Virus record (IMG/VR): IMGVR_UViG_3300000292_000175
Strand: one strand, 5' to 3'
DNA: 22,993 bases
Source of the DNA: a virus
Taxonomy: Duplodnaviria; Heunggongvirae; Uroviricota; Caudoviricetes
Below, piece after piece: positions 3,352-20,164 of the stretch. A program made the position numbers and the translations under genes. Position 1 is the first letter of the stretch, and each line of letters begins with the position of its first letter. The notes beneath the pieces were generated by a model. That model did no database searches. It was not told the origin of the DNA and saw only the letters and a list, made by a program, of their open reading frames with translations.

Positions 3352-3788
3352 CATCCGCATTTACCTGGTATTCCATGATGAGTTCACGCAGCGACTGATA
3401 GAGGAAGGAAAGATGGTTAGTAAAAGCAAGGCGCATTGCCGCCGCATGCTGCAGGCATTGCAACAGACGAGAGCAGGTATTTTTGACCAGTTGGAAAACT
3501 GCCAGCATACTTTGCCCGAGTATATCGCCATCTCATCGGAAACCAGTGCAACTCTTATTCATCGGGTTCCNNNNNNNNNNNNNNNNNNNNNNNNNNNNNN
3601 NNNNNNNNNNNNNNNNNNNNNNNNNNNNNNNNNNNNNNNNNNNNACCAGAGAAAAAGAAGAAATGAACAGTGAGGCGTTGTGTGGCATACAACGCCTTCT
3701 TCCATCATTCCTCGTCAGCCATGACAAAAATATAACCGCTGGCTCTTTCATTTTTCTCCTGCTTCCAGCCCCTCTCTACCTGGAAGCA

Positions 3789-4115: not shown

Positions 4116-4595
4116 TTTTATTCCTACGGGTCTTATTCTGACAATATATCCTGTGTTCCAGACTGCCACATCACCACATCCTGTGCCATTATCTGACTCA
4201 CATTACATACATCGCATCGGGATACAGTAGTAGCACTTTCTGTAATACAGCTTCCTGTTTCTTCCACCATCGCACCGGGATAAACCCGCGAATCATTAAC
4301 GCGGTAAAAACCCGGTGTGCATCGTTTTTAATTATTCCCGCACACTCACGCAGAAGGAATTCCCCGTCGGGCTACGGTCATGGTTAATGCGGGAATACGG
4401 CGACGATACAGCGCAGCTAAAAGGGTAATGGACGGATAGACCGGTTTATTTCATTCCACAGGATTCTGAGTGTCCCCAACTTCCTCCAATAGTCTGAGCC
4501 CACCTGTGTAGTTTTAATTTTCATCAATCCATTTAACTATCGTTTAATTGTTGTCACATAGGATTCTGCCGTTTTTAACAATGCAGGATAATAAG

Positions 4596-4889
4596 ATGAA
4601 AAAAATGTTGTTTTCTGCCGCTCTGGCAATGCTTATTACAGGATGTGCTCAACAGACGTTTACTGTTGGAAACAAACCTACAGCAGTAACACCAAAGGAA
4701 ACCATCACCCATCATTTCTTCGTTTCGGGAATTGGGCAGAAGAAAACTGTCGATGCAGCAAAAATTTGTGGTGGTGCAGAAAATGTTGTTAAAACAGAAA
4801 CCCAGCAAACATTCGTAAATGGATTGCTCGGTTTTATTACTTTAGGCATTTATACTCCGCTGGAAGCGCGTGTGTATTGCTCACAATAA
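4596..4889 (+). CDS. bor: Bor lipoprotein (serum-resistance lipoprotein)
   Basis: 97-aa product MKKMLFSAALAMLITGCAQQTFTV...LEARVYCSQ, near-identical to lambda Bor as recalled. Opposite strand to the lysis genes, as in lambda. Confidence 0.92.
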   Translation: MKKMLFSAALAMLITGCAQQTFTVGNKPTAVTPKETITHHFFVSGIGQKKTVDAAKICGGAENVVKTETQQTFVNGLLGFITLGIYTPLEARVYCSQ

Positions 4890-4920
4890 TTGCATGAGTT
4901 GCCCATCGATATGGGCAGCT

Positions 4921-6253: not shown

Positions 6254-6679
6254 AAGCTGTGTGACGAAGTAACCACTCTTAACAGCATAACCAATTTTTT
6301 ACGTACGTAAACTACTAAATGATATTTGTGAGAATGCCACCGAGTGTTCAAAACACCACCACAAATGCATAAGAAAACTTCAACAAATAACCAGTTAATA
6401 ATTTCCGATGTTATTTTTAGTTTGTTTAAATTAAGCTAAAGAATTATAGAGCACTTATAAATAAGTGCCATTAATATAAATTAGCTAATAGATTTATTTT
6501 TGTTCAGACAAGAGCCATGAATAGGATTAGATAGAAAAGGTTCAGATAAAAATAGAGATCTACTTCACAAATTAAATGAGAAACTAAAACTTACATCTTG
6601 AAATAATCACATTGATTAGATGAATATTTATCGCGCAGTGACATCATTTTTTAATAATAGTTCAAAAAAAGGGCGTACA

Positions 6680-7762
6680 ATGAAAAAATTAACAGTGGCA
6701 ATTTCTGCTGTAGCTGCATCAGTACTGATGGCGATGTCTGCTCAGGCAGCTGAAATTTATAATAAAGACAGTAACAAGCTGGATCTATACGGGAAAGTTA
6801 ATGCCAAGCACTACTTCTCCTCTAATGATGCAGATGATGGTGATACTACTTATGCCCGTCTTGGCTTCAAAGGTGAAACCCAAATCAACGATCAACTGAC
6901 TGGTTTCGGTCAGTGGGAATATGAATTCAAAGGCAACCGTGCTGAATCTCAAGGTTCTTCCAAAGACAAAACCCGTCTTGCATTTGCAGGCCTGAAATTT
7001 GGTGATTACGGCTCAATCGATTACGGCCGTAACTACGGTGTAGCATACGACATCGGTGCGTGGACTGACGTTCTGCCAGAATTCGGTGGTGATACCTGGA
7101 CCCAAACAGATGTGTTCATGACTGGTCGCACTACTGGTGTTGCAACTTATCGTAACAACGACTTCTTTGGTCTGGTCGATGGCCTGAACTTTGCTGCTCA
7201 GTATCAGGGTAAAAATGACCGCACTGACGTAACTGAAGCCAATGGTGATGGTTTCGGTTTCTCCACTACTTATGAGTATGAAGGATTCGGCGTGGGTGCA
7301 ACCTATGCTAAATCAGATCGCACTGACGGTCAGGTCGCCTATGGTAAGAGCAAATTCAATGCCTCCGGCAAAAATGCGGAAGTATGGGCTGCAGGCCTGA
7401 AATATGATGCGAACAATATCTATCTGGCTACCACATATTCTGAAACTCAGAATATGACCGTTTTTGGTAATAACCATATTGCAAACAAAGCACAAAACTT
7501 TGAAGCAGTAGCACAATATCAGTTTGACTTCGGTCTGCGTCCATCTGTTGCTTACCTTCAGTCAAAAGGTAAAGACCTTGGTGTTCATGGTGACCGAGAC
7601 TTAGTCAAGTATGTCGATGTCGGTGCTACTTACTACTTTAATAAAAACATGTCCACTTTTGTTGATTACAAAATCAACTTAATTGACGATAGTAAGTTTA
7701 CCAAAACAGCTGGTATTGATACCGACGACATCGTCGCTGTAGGTCTGGTTTATCAGTTCTAA
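6680..7762 (+). CDS. nmpC: Outer-membrane general porin (OmpC/OmpF family), prophage-borne NmpC/Lc type
   Basis: 360 aa with signal peptide [23 protein letters not shown], porin hallmarks ([25 protein letters not shown]-terminal VAVGLVYQF). Opposite to Q and S, matching the DLP12 quuD-nmpC-essD layout. Confidence 0.9.
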
Positions 7763-10680: not shown

Positions 10681-10971
10681 TCATCTTTTAACTCCATATA
10701 CCGCCAATATCCGTTTCATCGTGGCACTCTGGCGACACTCCTTAAAAATCAGGTTCGTGCTCATCTTTCCTTCCCGTTCTTCCTTGGTAGCAAACCGGTA
10801 ATACACCGTTCGCCAGACCTTACCTTCGATAACCAGAAGACCTGCCCGTGCCATTTTAGCCGCGGCCTGATTTATGCTGGTTACTGTTGCGCCTGTTAGC
10901 GCGGCAACGTCCGGCGCACAGAAGCTATTATGCGTCCCCAGGTAATGAATAATTGCCTCTTTGCCCGTCAT
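10681..10971 (-). CDS. ren: Ren
   Basis: 96 aa MTGKEAIIHYLGTHNSFCAPDVAALTGATVTSINQAAAKMARAG..., near-identical to lambda Ren as recalled. Confidence 0.9.
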   Translation of the reverse strand: MTGKEAIIHYLGTHNSFCAPDVAALTGATVTSINQAAAKMARAGLLVIEGKVWRTVYYRFATKEEREGKMSTNLIFKECRQSATMKRILAVYGVKR

Positions 10972-11669
10972 ACACTTGCTCCTTTCAGTCCTAACTTAGC
11001 TTTAATTTCTGCGATCTTCGCCAGCGCCTGAACACGATTTAGAGGTCTGCCGCCCATGACAGGAAGTTGTTTTACTGGTTCAGGTATCGTCTCACCACGG
11101 TTAATTCGCGCTGTCATACAGGTCAGTTCATCGGCAGCCTTGCGTCGTAATTCCGCGTCAGTCAGCGCATTGGCCCGCATGTTCTGGTACAGGTTGGTAA
11201 CCAGCCAGTAGTGCGCGTTCGATTTCCACGGATAAGACTCTGCATCCGGATACAGGCCTCGCTTCCGGCAATACTCGTAAACCATATCAACCAGCTCGCT
11301 GACGTTTGGCAGTCCGGCGATAACGGATGCTTCTTCCCGGCACCATGCAACAAACTGCCCGGGTGATGGCAGAAATGGTCGATTCTGCCGACGGGCTACG
11401 CGCATTCCTGCGTTAACCTGTTCCATTGTGGTGATCCCGTTTTCCCGGAAAGCCAGAACCCACTGGCGGCGGATTTCGTTCAGTTCGTTCTGGTCACGGT
11501 TAGCCAGACTCGCCGGGAAAGTTGCCAGTAACTGGCTGAACACACCGTTGATGATCTGCGCTACCTGCTGTACCTGCGGCTTTTCGTCGTACTGTTCCGG
11601 CATGTTGTTGGCGATCCGACGCATCTGCTCACGGTCAAAATTAACCATCTGTGCGGCGATGTTTTTCAT
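10968..11669 (-). CDS. P: Replication protein P (DnaB helicase loader)
   Basis: 233 aa, near-identical to lambda P as recalled (MKNIAAQMVNFDREQMRRIANNMPEQYDEKPQVQQVAQIING...). Confidence 0.95.
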   Translation of the reverse strand: MKNIAAQMVNFDREQMRRIANNMPEQYDEKPQVQQVAQIINGVFSQLLATFPASLANRDQNELNEIRRQWVLAFRENGITTMEQVNAGMRVARRQNRPFLPSPGQFVAWCREEASVIAGLPNVSELVDMVYEYCRKRGLYPDAESYPWKSNAHYWLVTNLYQNMRANALTDAELRRKAADELTCMTARINRGETIPEPVKQLPVMGGRPLNRVQALAKIAEIKAKLGLKGASV

Positions 11670-12643
11670 AAATCCACCCCGTAAATCCAGTCAGTGTTTG
11701 TCAGGTCGAGTTTTGGTTTGCAGGCTGTCACACCTGCCTGTTGCTTGTTACGGTTGATTTCGAGCTGGGTCCACTTGTCGCGGAGTTTGGCCGGGCTCAG
11801 CACGTTACCGGACCAGAAGTTGTCCTGGCATGCCCAGCGGAACAGTACACACATGTCGCGATGGTTACGTCCGTCACGTTCACGCATCAGGCGGATATCG
11901 TTAGCCCACCCTGCAAAATTCGGTTTTCTGGCTGATGGCGCGATGGTCTTCACCATGTCAAACATCCATTCTGCGGCGGTCAGGTCTTCTGCTGTCCCCC
12001 ACTTGCTGCCGCTCTGAATTGCAGCATCCGGTTTCACCACAGAAAGGTCGTTTTCTGGCTGGTCAGAGGATTCGCCAGAATTCTCTGACGAATAATCTTT
12101 TCTTTTTTCTTTTGTAATAGTGTCTTTTGTGTCCCCCTGTTTTGAGGGATAGCAATCCCCCAATTTGAGGGATGTTTTATCCCTCGTTTTAGGGGATTTT
12201 CCCTCGTTTTGAGGGATACACCATTCTGAGATGTTTTTATTTGGTCCAAACATGCCGCCTTGCTGCTTGATAATATTCATTCTGACGAGTTCTAACTTGG
12301 CTTCATTGCACCGTTTGACGGGTAACTTTGTAATCTCGCTAAGTTGAGAATCGGTGATTCTGTCCATTGGTTTATTCCATCCATAGGTTTTACGCAGAAT
12401 GGCAAGCAGCACTTTAAACTGTCGCTTGGTCAGATCTGCGCCTGAATAAGCCTCAAGCAGNNNNNNNNNNNNNNNNNNNNNNNNNNNNNNNNNNNNNNNN
12501 NNNNNNNNNNNNNNNNNNNNNNNNNNNNNNNNNNNNNNNNNNNNNNNNNNNNTGGCGTAACCATCATCGAGATCTGCCACATTACGCTCCTGTTTGGCAA
12601 AGTTACCTCTGCAGAAGTTGAGTATTTTTGCTGTATTTGTCAT
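11666..12643 (-). CDS. O: Replication initiator O (contains ori-lambda); interrupted by N-run 12461-12552
   Basis: MTNTAKILNF...LLEAYSGADLTKRQFKVLLAILRKTYGWNKPMDRITDSQLSEITKLPVKRCNEAK... matches lambda O as recalled. True length unknown because of the N-run. Confidence 0.9.
   Translation of the reverse strand: MTNTAKILNFCRGNFAKQERNVADLDDGYAXXXXXXXXXXXXXXXXXXXXXXXXXXXXXXXLLEAYSGADLTKRQFKVLLAILRKTYGWNKPMDRITDSQLSEITKLPVKRCNEAKLELVRMNIIKQQGGMFGPNKNISEWCIPQNEGKSPKTRDKTSLKLGDCYPSKQGDTKDTITKEKRKDYSSENSGESSDQPENDLSVVKPDAAIQSGSKWGTAEDLTAAEWMFDMVKTIAPSARKPNFAGWANDIRLMRERDGRNHRDMCVLFRWACQDNFWSGNVLSPAKLRDKWTQLEINRNKQQAGVTACKPKLDLTNTDWIYGVDL
12085..12217 (-). repeat. ori: ori-lambda: four about 19-bp iterons (12132-12217) plus adjacent AT-rich region (about 12085-12130) inside O
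   Basis: Four tandem inverted-repeat units tccccctgttttgagggat / atcccccaatttgagggat / atccctcgttttaggggat / tccctcgttttgagggat, followed in the O sense by ttctttttcttttgtaatag. Confidence 0.85.
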
Positions 12644-12652
12644 AATGACTCC

Positions 12653-12730
12653 TGTGGATTGATCCAGTAATGACCTCAGAATTCCATCTGGATTTGTTCA
12701 GAACGCTCGGTTGCCGCCGGGCGTTTTTTA
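12653..12730 (+). ncRNA. oop: oop antisense RNA (about 77 nt), with pO promoter at 12618-12646 and terminator hairpin at 12703-12730
   Basis: TTGAGT, 17 bp, CATAAT at 12618-12646; terminator gaacgctcggttgccgccgggcgtttttta matches the lambda oop terminator as recalled. Antisense to the cII 3' end. Confidence 0.65.
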
Positions 12731-12972
12731 TTGGTGAGTCCATCAAGCGCATACTTAAAAGCCCTGCTAATCGGACTGATGTCTGATGCCATTCCGAAAG
12801 CACACAAGACCGAAGCAATAAATCTCCAGTCCGTTCTGCTTATCTTCGATTCATGACAGCCAATCATCTTTGCCAGACCGCGCTGGGTAATAGCTGACAG
12901 ATTGATAAGTAAATCTGTTTCTGCGCGATCAACGTCACGCTGTGATAGTTTGCTGTAACTTGTTCTTTCCAT
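12676..12972 (-). CDS. cII: CII transcriptional activator (hybrid: non-lambda N-terminal part, lambda-identical C-terminus)
   Basis: 98 aa; C-terminal LTNKKRPAATERSEQIQMEF is identical to lambda CII as recalled, N-terminal two-thirds differ. Lies between cro and O. Confidence 0.8.
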   Translation of the reverse strand: MERTSYSKLSQRDVDRAETDLLINLSAITQRGLAKMIGCHESKISRTDWRFIASVLCAFGMASDISPISRAFKYALDGLTNKKRPAATERSEQIQMEF

Positions 12973-13057
12973 TTCTTAAGATTTCCAATAGTGAATAGTT
13001 AGTTGAAAGGTATGCATGGAAACGCATATGGCCTTAGTTGGTCAGATATCTTGGAAC

Positions 13058-13329: not shown

Positions 13330-13440
13330 ATGCCCTCCATAGTAAACACGAATAAAAAAATACAATATGTACTTTGCGAATACAAGTAAAAATACACATT
13401 GTGCATGGATGGTTCCAGTACAGAGCGTAATAATAAGGAC
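13330..13440. promoter_or_regulatory. OR operator region with divergent PR (candidate -35 at 13380-13385, -10 at 13357-13362, minus strand) and PRM
   Basis: Intergenic region between divergent cro and cI. Minus strand has TTGTAT, 17 bp, TATTTT. Several TACA/TGTA dyads (tacaatatgta, cacattgtg) are candidate operator half-sites. Confidence 0.55.
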
Positions 13441-14100
13441 ATGAAAATGAAATGGTATGAACTGGCTAGATCCAGAATGAAAGAGCTCGGCATAACTCAA
13501 GAGAAGTTAGCCGAAGAGCTAGGTATGACGCAGGGTGGGATTGGACACTGGTTGCGCGGATCTCGTCATCCATCTCTTAGTGATATTGGTGTGGTGTTTA
13601 AATACCTTGGTATTGATAACATATCATTCAACCACGACGGGACATTTTCACCTGTTGGCGAATACTCATCGGCCCCAGTTAAAAAACAATATGAGTACCC
13701 TGTTTTTTCTCATGTTCAGGCTGGGATGTTCTCTCCAGAACTCAGAACCTTTACCAAAGGCGATGCGGAGAGATTGGTAAGCACAACCAAAAAAGCCAGT
13801 GACTCTGCATTCTGGCTTGAGGTTGAAGGTAACTCAATGACCGCACCAACAGGTTCCAAACCCAGCTTTCCTGACGGGATGTTAATTCTGGTTGACCCTG
13901 AGCAAGCTGTTGAGCCCGGCGATTTCTGCATAGCCAGACTTGGTGGTGATGAATTTACCTTCAAGAAACTGATCAGGGATAGCGGTCAGGTGTTTCTACA
14001 GCCACTAAACCCACAATACCCAATGATCCCATGCAATGAGAGTTGTTCCGTTGTGGGGAAAGTTATCGCCAGCCAATGGCCTGAAGAGACGTTTGGGTGA
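13441..14100 (+). CDS. cI: CI repressor (N-terminal HTH, C-terminal S24 LexA-like autopeptidase domain)
   Basis: [26 protein letters not shown]; C-terminal GNSM (Ser) and FTFKKL (Lys) dyad. Start chosen at ATG 13441 (AAGGA RBS); ATG 13447 is also possible. Not the lambda immunity type. Confidence 0.85.
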
Positions 14101-14139
14101 TGAAACCACTTTTATCTACAATTTACAGGGCGGTAAACA

Positions 14140-14697
14140 TTGGCAAAAATAGATGATTATCAGCCAAGCCAAGTAGAAGTTGATAAAGTACTTTATTGTA
14201 AAAAAATAGTTAACTTTTCTGGCGTTAAATGGAAACAGAAACCAAGTCGCTCTGATATGTGGCTACAAGCCCATATCATCCCCTTGGATGAGGATTGTAT
14301 ACCTATACAAGGGCTAAAGTTTGAACTGAAATGGAAACCAGATCAGGATTCAGAACCTGATGACCCGATTTCTTACCCTAAAATAAATATTATTGCTTTC
14401 TATCATAACAAGAGGGTTTTCGCGGTAGATACCTATCACTTTGACAAACACACGAATAGTTACAAGGTCGATCATCCGAAGTACCAAGATATCATTTACG
14501 GTGCTCACTACCATGTATACTATGAAGAAGCTGGATACTATAGTGATAGAATAGCGTTTCCAATCGAAGATGACATAAACCCAGATGACCTGGTAGGGTA
14601 TTGGAATTACTTCTGTAAACATCTGAACATAACTTACTCTGGGAGAATACCTTTACCGCTTGAAGATGAGTCGGGGCAAATGGGGTTTGGAATATGA
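14140..14697 (+). CDS. Hypothetical protein, gene 1 of a two-gene cassette in the rexA position
   Basis: 185-aa ORF, apparent TTG start at 14140 (no in-frame ATG nearby), AGGGCGG 7 nt upstream. AT-rich by eye. Acidic and Tyr/His/Trp-rich; no motif recognised. Confidence 0.55.
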   Translation: MAKIDDYQPSQVEVDKVLYCKKIVNFSGVKWKQKPSRSDMWLQAHIIPLDEDCIPIQGLKFELKWKPDQDSEPDDPISYPKINIIAFYHNKRVFAVDTYHFDKHTNSYKVDHPKYQDIIYGAHYHVYYEEAGYYSDRIAFPIEDDINPDDLVGYWNYFCKHLNITYSGRIPLPLEDESGQMGFGI

Positions 14698-15446
14698 TGT
14701 GCTCAACAGTGATCTCACAACTAGGTTTCGAATGCCATCCAATAGGCAAGACCTTGAGAATTATCAGTCCATTCACTTACTGTGATGATGGAGAGCATGT
14801 CGGTGCCTTTATCCGTGAAGTCAATGGTAGGTATTTAGTTAGTGACAGATGCGATGCCTTAATGAATATGGAGGCAAGAGGGATCTCGCTTACCAAAAAA
14901 CGACTTGATGAGATACGACAATTACTGCTTAAAGAAGGCGCAGAACTCAATGCTCGAGGAGAAATCATTGCTTGGGCAACAGAAAAGGATGTCGGTGCGA
15001 TTACATCGAACATAATTAGAGCTGGTATACTCGCATCAACTTTGTCGTTAGACTGGTATCAGCCAGTTCAAGCTGAAAAGTTTGAAAGTATGGTTATTGA
15101 TTATCTATATCACACAGAGCTTAGAGACGCACTTTCTCTTCGTGAAAACGTATATGGCTTGAGTGGACATCAAATTACCGTCCCTGTAACAATAAAAACC
15201 GACATACCTAAATACGTTTTTACATCAAGCGTGAAACACGGAGGAAGCTGGAATAGTGCTTACTCATTGCTTGGGAAACTAATTGATCTTAAAGCTTCAA
15301 GTGAGGAGTATAACAACAGATTTGTTGTTATAGACAGCGAAGCAATTGGTGATCAAATGCAACAACTCTCCTTACTCTTCCATGAATCAAGCCAAGTTCT
15401 ACCATTCTCCAAAAGAGAGACTTGGGTTAAGAGACTTGCAGCATAA
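14694..15446 (+). CDS. Hypothetical protein, gene 2 of a two-gene cassette in the rexB position
   Basis: 250-aa ORF; ATG overlaps the gene-1 stop (ATGA); GGGG RBS. AT-rich by eye; no Walker or nuclease motif recognised. Confidence 0.6.
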   Translation: MMCSTVISQLGFECHPIGKTLRIISPFTYCDDGEHVGAFIREVNGRYLVSDRCDALMNMEARGISLTKKRLDEIRQLLLKEGAELNARGEIIAWATEKDVGAITSNIIRAGILASTLSLDWYQPVQAEKFESMVIDYLYHTELRDALSLRENVYGLSGHQITVPVTIKTDIPKYVFTSSVKHGGSWNSAYSLLGKLIDLKASSEEYNNRFVVIDSEAIGDQMQQLSLLFHESSQVLPFSKRETWVKRLAA

Positions 15447-15450
15447 TACA

Positions 15451-15478
15451 ACCCGGCCTCAGCGCCGGGTTTTCTTTG
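15451..15478 (+). terminator. Intrinsic terminator after the cI cassette (tIMM-like)
   Basis: acccggc-ctcagc-gccgggt followed by tttctttg immediately after the gene-2 stop. Confidence 0.7.
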
Positions 15479-15664
15479 CCTCACGTTCGCCCACCTAAAA
15501 ACACATAACCAATTATATTTATTGAAAAATAAATAGATGCAACCCACTAAACCACGCAATTCTGATCTCTCCTTACATCGCCGAGGCAATACATCCACGC
15601 TAAAAAACAACACTATTAAATACAAAGCGTTATAAAAAACCACGCCAACTTACAACAAATTGTA

Positions 15665-15693
15665 TTGATCTTGTAAAGTACATATCGTACTAT
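15665..15693 (+). promoter_or_regulatory. Candidate PL promoter (TTGATC, 17 bp, TACTAT) with overlapping dyad TACAACAAATTGTA (OL candidate)
   Basis: -35 at 15665-15670, -10 at 15688-15693, about 45 nt upstream of nutL; dyad TACAA-N4-TTGTA at 15651-15664. Confidence 0.5.
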
Positions 15694-15739
15694 TTAACCG
15701 TCAGCAGGACGCTGGAAGCCAAATGGAACAGACTGGCAG

Positions 15740-15784
15740 GCTCTTTAAACAACGTCGACTCTCGACTACGTGGCTGAAAAGCCA
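15740..15784 (+). promoter_or_regulatory. nutL: nutL: boxA (15740-15752) and boxB hairpin (15771-15784)
   Basis: GCTCTTTAAACAA resembles boxA; TGGCT-GAAA-AGCCA stem-loop shares the GCTGAAAAGC core with the nutR boxB; sits between PL and N. Confidence 0.6.
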
Positions 15785-15882
15785 GATCACCCAACCACAT
15801 AAGCTGTGGGATGCAATGCCGAAGCAACCGTCTCAGGAGGAGCTTCGAGATTGCATCGCCAAAGTTTATTCGGGAGGAATCC

Positions 15883-16155
15883 ATGTCCAGAAAAACAGAA
15901 TTTAAAGGCACCGCAGCTTCTCGCCGTAGAGCTCGTCGCGCAAATCTGCAAAGTCAGGAGGCGATCAGCTCCGACAAGCTACACAGGCCAACCCCTTCAC
16001 GAGTGGTCTTGCAATGCAAGCTCAAACCAGCAATGAGAGCAGAAGTGATAACTCTGACAACGTTGACCAGAAAATATGAAGGTTCAACTTGTCTTCCGAA
16101 CGTAGCTCTTTACGCGGCAGGCTACCGGAAATCAAAACAACTGACGGCGAGATGA
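15883..16155 (+). CDS. N: N-like antiterminator (arginine-rich motif)
   Basis: 90 aa MSRKTEFKGTAASRRRARRANLQSQE...; GGGAGG RBS before ATG 15883; first gene after nutL. Not lambda N. Confidence 0.7.
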   Translation: MSRKTEFKGTAASRRRARRANLQSQEAISSDKLHRPTPSRVVLQCKLKPAMRAEVITLTTLTRKYEGSTCLPNVALYAAGYRKSKQLTAR

Positions 16156-16171
16156 TAAATTCATTTGCTAA

Positions 16172-16726
16172 TTACTTGTTTTTGCCATGCTTATCCTGAG
16201 CGATAAGTTCATCCATAAGGCTGTCTGCCTTCCCGGCAAACCTAATGTAGCACTCATGTCTATAGCTTTCAGGGATAACGAAACGGTCGGTATCAGGATA
16301 TCCAACAGCAGGAGGCCTTCGAACGAGGAGTCCTTTTTTGAGCAATGAAATTGATTCATGAGCGCCCTTTTCCGTTTGTAGCTGGTTATTAGCGGCTACA
16401 GCGAATGCCAAATACGCTCTTTCTCCAAGAGTTAACGAATCAAACAAATCTTGCACATATTTTTCTTCTTTAGATTTGCGCTTCTGAGCAGCGAATACCT
16501 CAATTCTTTCAGTCACAGCGTGATAAGCGGAATTAACAACGCCGTTAAGCACATAGCTAACGCAAAACAACAGGATGTAATACATCCAGTAATGAGGAAG
16601 GATTTCTGGATTATGCAGGTTTATCCATTCTTTTACGCTTACCGGCATAACAATAATCAATATGATCAGGATGATTAGCATATGAATCAACTGTTTAAGT
16701 GTCATTCCTTGCAGGAAAAAATGCAT
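16172..16726 (-). CDS. sieB: Superinfection exclusion protein B (SieB)-like membrane protein
   Basis: Convergent with N, between N and ral as lambda sieB. N-terminal TM segments LIHMLIILIILIIVMPV and YWMYYILLFCVSYVL. Start uncertain (Mets at 16753, 16726, 16705). Confidence 0.55.
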   Translation of the reverse strand: MHFFLQGMTLKQLIHMLIILIILIIVMPVSVKEWINLHNPEILPHYWMYYILLFCVSYVLNGVVNSAYHAVTERIEVFAAQKRKSKEEKYVQDLFDSLTLGERAYLAFAVAANNQLQTEKGAHESISLLKKGLLVRRPPAVGYPDTDRFVIPESYRHECYIRFAGKADSLMDELIAQDKHGKNK

Positions 16727-16896
16727 TAGTTCCTGCCACCATGAGTTGTTCATCGGCGTTTCTCTTTTGCTCTCTGTAGGGGTGAATAGAGTTTATCCGA
16801 TTTCTCGTTGTAGGGGTACACGAGAACCACCGAGCCTGATGTGGTTAAAAGACAGGCACAATCTTTACTACCGCAATCCACTATTTAAGGTGATAT

Positions 16897-19907: not shown

Positions 19908-20164
19908 CCCATCCTCACGATAATATCCGGGTAGGCGCGATCACTTTCGTCTACTCCGTNNNNNNNNNNNNNNNNNNNNNNNNNNNNNNNNNNNNNNNNN
20001 NNNNNNNNNNNNNNNNNNNNNNNNNNNNNNNNNNNNNNNNAAAGCGAGGCTGGGTATTTCACGGTCTTTCTGTTATCCGAAATCCGCTGAAAGCCCAGCG
20101 GCTGGCTGAGGAGATAAATAATAAACGGGGGGCGGTATGCACAAAGCATCTCCTGTTGAGTTAA
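19898..20164 (+). CDS. Lambda orf60a-like small protein, interrupted by N-run 19960-20040
   Basis: [20 protein letters not shown]...[40 protein letters not shown]; true length unknown. Confidence 0.5.

Follow-up and report, generated by a model that had tools for sequence, protein, structure and literature searches.

We describe a two-gene cassette, A–B, in a 22,993-nucleotide stretch of viral DNA (IMG/VR record IMGVR_UViG_3300000292_000175; hereafter the window, meaning the whole stretch at its full length) that belongs to a lambdoid phage or prophage. The cassette occupies the slot between the repressor gene cI and the antiterminator gene N, and on balance we think it probable that A–B is a lysogen-expressed, two-gene, cytosolic anti-phage module of temperate phages. 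The position of the two genes, their linkage, the exchange of the cassette among phages and its likeness to defence candidates are observations; function and mechanism are what we infer from them. An initial annotation of this DNA had described two overlapping open reading frames (ORFs) of 185 and 250 amino acids (aa) between the cI stop at 14100 and a terminator, followed by PL, nutL and N, and every one of these features is found where that annotation had put it (Table 1). The overlap is the tetranucleotide ATGA, in which the ATG of B shares bases with the TGA of A.

A discrete cassette exchanged between cI and N

Three phages, 2G7b, 2B8 and Stx2a_WGPS8, match the window on both sides of the cassette, with 97–99% identity on the cI side and 93–99% on the N side. 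The identity ends at positions 14098–14102, which is the cI stop codon, and restarts at 15449–15450, where the terminator hairpin begins. Between these same junctions the three phages hold other cargo: a 283-aa protein, an NYN-domain protein and a 173-aa protein. Because phages with near-identical cI and N flanks hold different cargo between the same junctions, A–B is a discrete, swappable and horizontally exchanged cassette with exact boundaries. Horizontal acquisition had been suggested initially from base composition, and the exact position of both junctions, together with the alternative cargo in phages with the same flanks, bears this out.

The lambdoid cI-to-PL/N slot holds the rexAB exclusion genes in lambda, and its other occupants include stk in phage 933W and bstA in phage BTP1; defence cargo in the rexAB slot is a well-known concept. 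As the initial annotation recognized, A–B lies in the positional equivalent of rexAB, directly downstream of cI and with a terminator before PL. In eight related loci a DUF3024 gene (113 aa; matching the PADLOC candidate PDC-S43 with E 1e-38) is inserted between cI and A, and candidate defence genes are therefore stacked in the slot in some prophages.

The G+C content of the cassette is 0.400 (0.382 for A and 0.406 for B), compared with 0.463 in both cI and the window as a whole and 0.499 in N. The genes had been described as much more AT-rich than cI and N; the dip is real, but it is modest and 'much' overstates it. In lambda (locus L100, lambda positions 35825–37940), rexA and rexB have G+C contents of 0.402 and 0.425, compared with 0.452 for cI and 0.502 for N, and the AT-rich margin over the flanks is about equal in the lambda rexA and rexB genes and in the A–B cassette. 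In general, cargo in the cI–N slot seems to be low in G+C.

The two genes are strictly linked. In all 93 related loci analysed, B directly follows A and the two overlap, and the nearest gene on the same strand before A encodes, in almost every case, a prophage repressor. These repressors form 24 clusters at 60% identity; most combine a helix-turn-helix (HTH) domain with an S24 domain, and some are short HTH proteins of the Rac type. On its downstream side, the pair is followed by a gene resembling N or by other early-left genes. The genera represented among the loci are Escherichia, Salmonella, Klebsiella, Yersinia, Providencia, Xenorhabdus, Pantoea, Thorsellia and Aeromonas. Judged from these sequences, the cassette is one that has moved among many immunity regions, always landing in a position predicted to be expressed in the lysogen.

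Amino-acid identity of the A and B relatives ranges from 36 to 84% across Enterobacterales and Aeromonas. In these groups the B relatives form about 47 clusters at an identity of at least 47%, and there are about 26 clusters of A relatives. A profile search of 1.84 billion proteins with A finds 32 representatives at E ≤1e-3, so the A family is rare. When one genome per species is scanned, only 8 loci turn up, and 114 viral contigs in IMG/VR encode B; the pair therefore lives mainly in prophages. At an identity of at least 99%, the cassette is present in 250 of 5,426 complete Escherichia coli genomes (about 5%), always on the chromosome, and its carriers include the probiotic strain Nissle 1917, the type strain ATCC 11775 and many extraintestinal pathogenic E. 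coli strains. Both proteins have PHROG matches (phrog_2017 and phrog_1960); these matches and the conservation of A and B across genera rule out spurious ORFs. The junction of A and B is also encoded on one 518-bp contig labelled Actinomadura rugatobispora (locus L015); because the B portion shares 82% identity with the E. coli protein, this contig is most likely enterobacterial contamination of an actinomycete assembly.

The short gap between cI and A (39 bp) and the lack of a terminator within it make it likely that A–B is co-transcribed with cI from PRM, in the manner of lambda rexAB. The sole strong terminator-like site in the region is the hairpin at 15450–15478 downstream of B, in which an 8-bp stem with 6 G–C pairs (15450–15471) is followed by the T-run TTCTTTG; none lies between cI and A. 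The region is no richer in promoter-like sites than shuffled sequence, and no internal promoter is indicated. In the lysogen, A–B would be transcribed together with the repressor by read-through from PRM, and transcription would stop at this terminator.

Proteins A and B and their relation to defence systems

Protein A is soluble and acidic by prediction, with a maximum 19-residue Kyte–Doolittle hydropathy of 0.45 and no membrane segment or signal peptide. Its AlphaFold2 (AF2) model is confident, with a predicted local distance difference test (pLDDT) score of 85 and a predicted template modelling (pTM) score of 0.84. Across relatives with identities down to 22%, residues K22, W31, R92, H104, N106, H123, H125, F158 and P173 are invariant and D97, G121 and Q180 nearly so, a pattern that fits a metal or active site. 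Sequence search yields no relative of A in the PDB, and a search of BFVD gives a single match, an uncharacterised phage protein. Against Pfam DUF6978, A scores 22 bits, below the cut-off of 29.6, and only over residues 104–164; distant A relatives also remain under the DUF6978 threshold. The initial annotation had recognized no family or catalytic motif in A. With profile searches this does not hold for the family, A having a weak match to PDC-M24A, one of the two protein families of a PADLOC candidate system; A also has an invariant His/Asn/His cluster. Cupin, HNH and metallophosphatase readings of the HxN...GxHxH motif were dropped because the fold searches gave them no support.

The start codon of A is also conserved in kind. 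In 85 of 86 loci (L002–L098) it is not ATG, the counts being 56 for GTG, 29 for TTG and one for ATG, and such wide conservation suggests selection for low translation of A.

Protein B, likewise predicted to be soluble and acidic, has a maximum hydropathy of 1.19 on the same scale and no membrane segment or signal peptide. Its AF2 model (mean pLDDT 79.5) has two domains. The N-terminal domain (residues ~1–118) is a DUF1828 domain, matched by Pfam over residues 26–110 with 33.5 bits against a gathering cut-off of 22, and has a fold like those of type III secretion chaperones, DUF2170 and XisI. The C-terminal domain (residues ~129–250) is a DUF1829 domain with a PD-(D/E)xK fold, in which the restriction-endonuclease-like alpha-beta-beta-beta-alpha-beta core is present; DeWeirdt et al. 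also assigned B to DUF1829, clan PDDEXK, by HHpred (Table S5 of PMC13092281). Conservation is higher in the N-terminal domain (66% versus 56% mean identity), which has a dense invariant cluster of mainly acidic and His residues comprising E13, D31, D32, E34, H35, D51, D54, N58, E60 and R62. In the C-terminal domain, H159, K173, D198, R209 and D214 are invariant. A search of solved structures by sequence with B gives matches at chance level only. The initial statement that B belongs to no recognizable family does not hold, given the DUF1828 match above threshold and the match to PDC-M24B. The C-terminus of B reads ...KRLAA (window 15435–15446), and L248 and A250 are nearly invariant in the family. 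The last three residues, LAA, are the same as those of the SsrA degradation tag, and this end may be a ClpXP degron.

A scan with PADLOC v2 at E ≤1 matches A to PDC-M24A and B to PDC-M24B, and returns no other family. B matches two PDC-M24B models over their full length (E 4.7e-10, 37.5 bits), and A matches PDC-M24A over its C-terminal third only (residues 104–163; E 4.8e-4, 18.1 bits), in both cases by profile E-value rather than by the PADLOC system thresholds; more distant A relatives also match PDC-M24A, weakly. The candidate system has two genes in the same order as A–B. From these comparisons A–B looks like a divergent relative of PDC-M24 and, because both matches are weak, a sister lineage rather than a clear member of it. 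The PADLOC check that the initial annotation proposed thus finds no characterised system at the locus, only this candidate, for which we found no experimental or mechanistic description in the literature. Stk of 933W and BstA of Salmonella phage BTP1 resemble the pair in being the products of lysogen-expressed anti-phage genes beside the repressor, but they are single, unrelated proteins and show no relationship to A–B in the PADLOC scan.

The cassette has also been listed by DefensePredictor (DeWeirdt, Mahoney & Laub, Science 2026, PMC13092281), where both accessions appear in Table S5 as one operon, each a 'Predicted novel defense gene', with log-odds of 5.64 for B and 4.90 for A. According to these authors, known defence proteins include no homologue of either protein by sequence or by Foldseek (PMC13092281). 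The A and B accessions are absent from the 94 transcription units that were tested in that study against a limited panel of 24 phages; 26 of these units have scores within 2 log-odds of 5.64, and 10 of the 26 protected (PMC13092281). From the score by itself, this gives a prior of about 0.4 for protection. The cassette is thus already predicted computationally by two resources, PADLOC through a candidate relative and DefensePredictor directly. The idea that it represents an undescribed type of system accordingly holds in part: no named PADLOC v2 system matches, but there are the weak match to PDC-M24 and the DefensePredictor listing. The main texts of the literature searched contained nothing useful on DUF1828, DUF6978, PDC-M24 or the two WP accessions.

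DUF1829 was first linked to defence through DS-6B, the second protein of HipAD (DS-6), a validated two-gene defence system of E. coli (DeWeirdt et al. 2026, PMC13092281). DS-6B shares the DUF1829 domain found in the C-terminal half of B, but its N-terminal domain is DUF3037, not DUF1828, and its partner is a HipA-like kinase, whereas A is unrelated to kinases. B also differs from proteins of the Can2/Card1 type, which join a sensor to a PD-(D/E)xK domain: its N-terminal domain is of a type other than CARF, the neighbourhood encodes no cyclic-nucleotide synthase and the canonical catalytic residues are not conserved.

Weighing an anti-phage role against the alternatives

If A–B is an anti-phage module, its role would be to shield the lysogen from other phages. 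Translational coupling would fix the A:B ratio, and the GTG or TTG start would keep A low. B would join a peptide- or ligand-binding DUF1828 domain to a PD-(D/E)xK-fold domain that binds, and possibly cuts, nucleic acid, and A, whose conserved His/Asn/His/Asp cluster is of the kind typical for metal sites, would be the candidate enzymatic partner. We envisage that a phage cue would activate the A–B complex and that phage nucleic acid would then be destroyed or the infection aborted. Either protein may be the sensor, with the other as executor.

Several points weigh against an anti-phage role. The evidence for the function of the cassette is all positional, comparative or predictive, and co-transcription with cI is argued from spacing and a missing terminator. 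We found no experimental test of the cassette in the literature, where Brenes & Laub 2025 (Cell Host Microbe) may describe it. PDC-M24 is itself only a computational candidate and the match of A to it is weak and partial, and neither sequence nor fold searches found a relative of A with known function. In B, a canonical D...(D/E)xK motif is not found, there being no invariant acidic residue on predicted strands 160–167 and 173–178, and nuclease activity is doubtful because no recognisable motif of this kind is present; it is possible that H159, K173 and D198 form a relocated site of the Cfr10I kind. Finally, most of the comparably scored DefensePredictor units (16 of 26) gave no protection (PMC13092281).

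Could A–B instead be a toxin–antitoxin or addiction-like module that serves prophage stability or stress? A would then be a scarce toxin and B a labile, LAA-ended neutraliser, and protection against phages would be a side effect, or infection would set off the module by stopping host expression and letting B decay. Much of what is described above would suit such an arrangement: the two small overlapping genes, which imply translational coupling, the GTG or TTG start of A in 85 of the 86 loci, the enzyme-like residue conservation in A and the nearly invariant L248 and A250 of the ...RLAA end of B. In addition, the sole validated DUF1829 protein, DS-6B of HipAD, has been proposed to be an antitoxin-like partner (PMC13092281). 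However, neither protein matches a known toxin or antitoxin family in Pfam, NCBIfam or PADLOC, B lacks an HTH or other typical antitoxin DNA-binding domain and the LAA residues, a putative degron, sit at the end of a predicted helix. The strict placement behind repressors, in a slot where cargo is swapped, points to a benefit for the lysogen and not to addiction. We regard this explanation as unlikely, while noting that its logic overlaps with that of abortive-infection defence.

An alternative to which we give similarly little credence is that A–B is cargo with no part in defence, such as a modulator of induction or lysogeny, a DNA repair or recombination function or a host-fitness trait, and that its place behind cI merely provides expression in the lysogen. 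Many lysogen-expressed cargo genes serve no defence, and phages of this same type bear Bor-like, OmpC-like porin and sitABCD cargo. The canonical nuclease residues missing from B and the DefensePredictor units without protection would also be in keeping with such a role. Set against this, both proteins resemble a candidate system derived from defence islands, some prophages have the candidate defence gene PDC-S43 stacked with the pair in this slot and the alternative cargo of the slot includes a protein with an NYN nuclease domain. Nor does either protein have a signal peptide or membrane segment that would point to a surface or virulence factor.

A more specific scheme, and a rather speculative one, is that A–B is a new anti-phage system in which A is the effector, a metal-dependent enzyme whose fold occurs in no solved structure, and is held in check by B, a DUF1828 protein with a degenerate nuclease fold that its conserved LAA tail turns into a ClpXP-labile sensor or neutraliser. 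A superinfecting phage that perturbs B would thereby free A, and the cassette would be the 'other factor' in the resistance of Nissle 1917 to lambda and Shiga toxin (Stx) phages.

That A–B is a diverged RexAB, with the same slot and the same mechanism of a sensor plus a membrane ion channel, is hardly credible: the two pairs are alike in lying just downstream of cI on the same strand, in gene number, in the terminator before PL/N and in being AT-richer than their flanks, but this is a positional analogy only, as RexB is a membrane protein (maximum hydropathy 2.39) and A–B a purely cytosolic pair without a membrane segment, the gene sizes are reversed (279/144 aa in lambda versus 185/250 aa for A/B) and the folds differ. 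Homology to RexAB is ruled out by sequence comparison (best E 1 in a two-sequence blastp search, negative bit scores with the A and B family profiles and no Rex match in PADLOC at E ≤1), and the initial view that the cassette is something other than RexAB is upheld.

The Nissle 1917 prophage and the surrounding region

Bury et al. (2018, PMC5987069) reported that a 'phage repressor (pr)' gene of Nissle 1917 gives ~200-fold protection against lambda and Stx phages. By the quantitative polymerase chain reaction and cloning primers of that study, the pr gene is a CII-family activator that maps to window positions 12649–13018. The gene cloned in 2018 is thus of the cII family and not A–B, although the same defective Nissle 1917 prophage has the cassette. 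This prophage (locus L001, 6710–8315) ends just past sieB, with a frameshifted ISEc52 transposase and a partial integrase beside icd, and its cI–A–B–N–sieB block is intact.

If A–B protects, it would be a new protein family pair among prophage-borne defences, and the cI-to-PL slot would serve generally as an exchangeable site for defence genes, with many types of repressor and in many genera. The components of the cassette are unusual: A is without a structural relative, and B has the fold of a nuclease but not the usual catalytic residues. Since about one in twenty complete E. coli genomes carries the cassette, it could affect phage therapy, the spread of Stx phages and the phage resistance of Nissle 1917.

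Table 1. Coordinates of the A–B cassette and of associated features (window positions unless a locus is named)
Feature	Coordinates	Strand	Evidence and remarks
cII-family gene	12676–12972	-	Primer mapping from PMC5987069; neither cI nor the A–B cassette
cI-type repressor (HTH_3 + Peptidase_S24)	13405–14100	+	Pfam S24 E 1e-28, HTH_3 E 2e-10; RefSeq 'LexA family protein'; conserved left flank
cI–A spacer, 39 bp	14101–14139	+	Contains left recombination junction; no terminator
Gene A, 185 aa, TTG start	14140–14697	+	RefSeq WP_001062368.1 'hypothetical protein', same start
Gene B, 250 aa	14694–15446	+	RefSeq WP_000968518.1 'DUF1828 domain-containing protein', same start
Intrinsic terminator (position of lambda tImm)	15450–15478	+	Closes cI–A–B unit; starts conserved right flank
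PL/oL region and nutL-like element	15480–15766	+	Read from sequence; outside cassette; promoter itself putative
N-type antiterminator	15883–16155	+	Pfam N_peptide E 1e-32; RefSeq and phage annotations; conserved right flank
DUF3024/PDC-S43 gene	L008 4044–4385; L010 4053–4394; L011 4052–4393; L057–L060 and L062 3052–3393		Izhakiella, Providencia-type prophages

The window is collinear with Escherichia phage ev207 from position 4307 to its end, at 99.6–100% identity, and the cI-to-N stretch is 100% identical in phages ev207, ev017, PhiR57_1 and PhiR63_2. The longest ORF for cI begins at 13399, whereas the RefSeq coding sequence maps to the coordinates in Table 1, and the longest version of the N-family ORF begins at 15811. 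Within the nutL-like element, a boxA-like sequence, GCTCTTTAA, lies at 15740–15748 and a hairpin at 15754–15766.

By the annotations of Nissle 1917 and ev207, the immunity region has further exclusion-type genes on its flanks: a SieB-family gene adjoins N (window 16172–16753, minus strand), and a Ren-like gene adjoins the replication genes (window ~10750–11040 by the ev207 offset). The ev207 annotation also includes a gene for an OmpC-like porin, located between Q and the lysis genes, and one for a Bor-like lipoprotein; by offset these correspond to window positions ~6620–7760 and ~4580–4890, respectively. The sitABCD genes of ev207 lie beyond the integrase gene and outside the window. The window has N-masked runs at 3571–3644, 12461–12552 and 19960–20040, one of them inside an O-like replication gene, and the lengths of these runs differ from the ev207 counterpart, the second site having 92 N compared with 14 bases in ev207.

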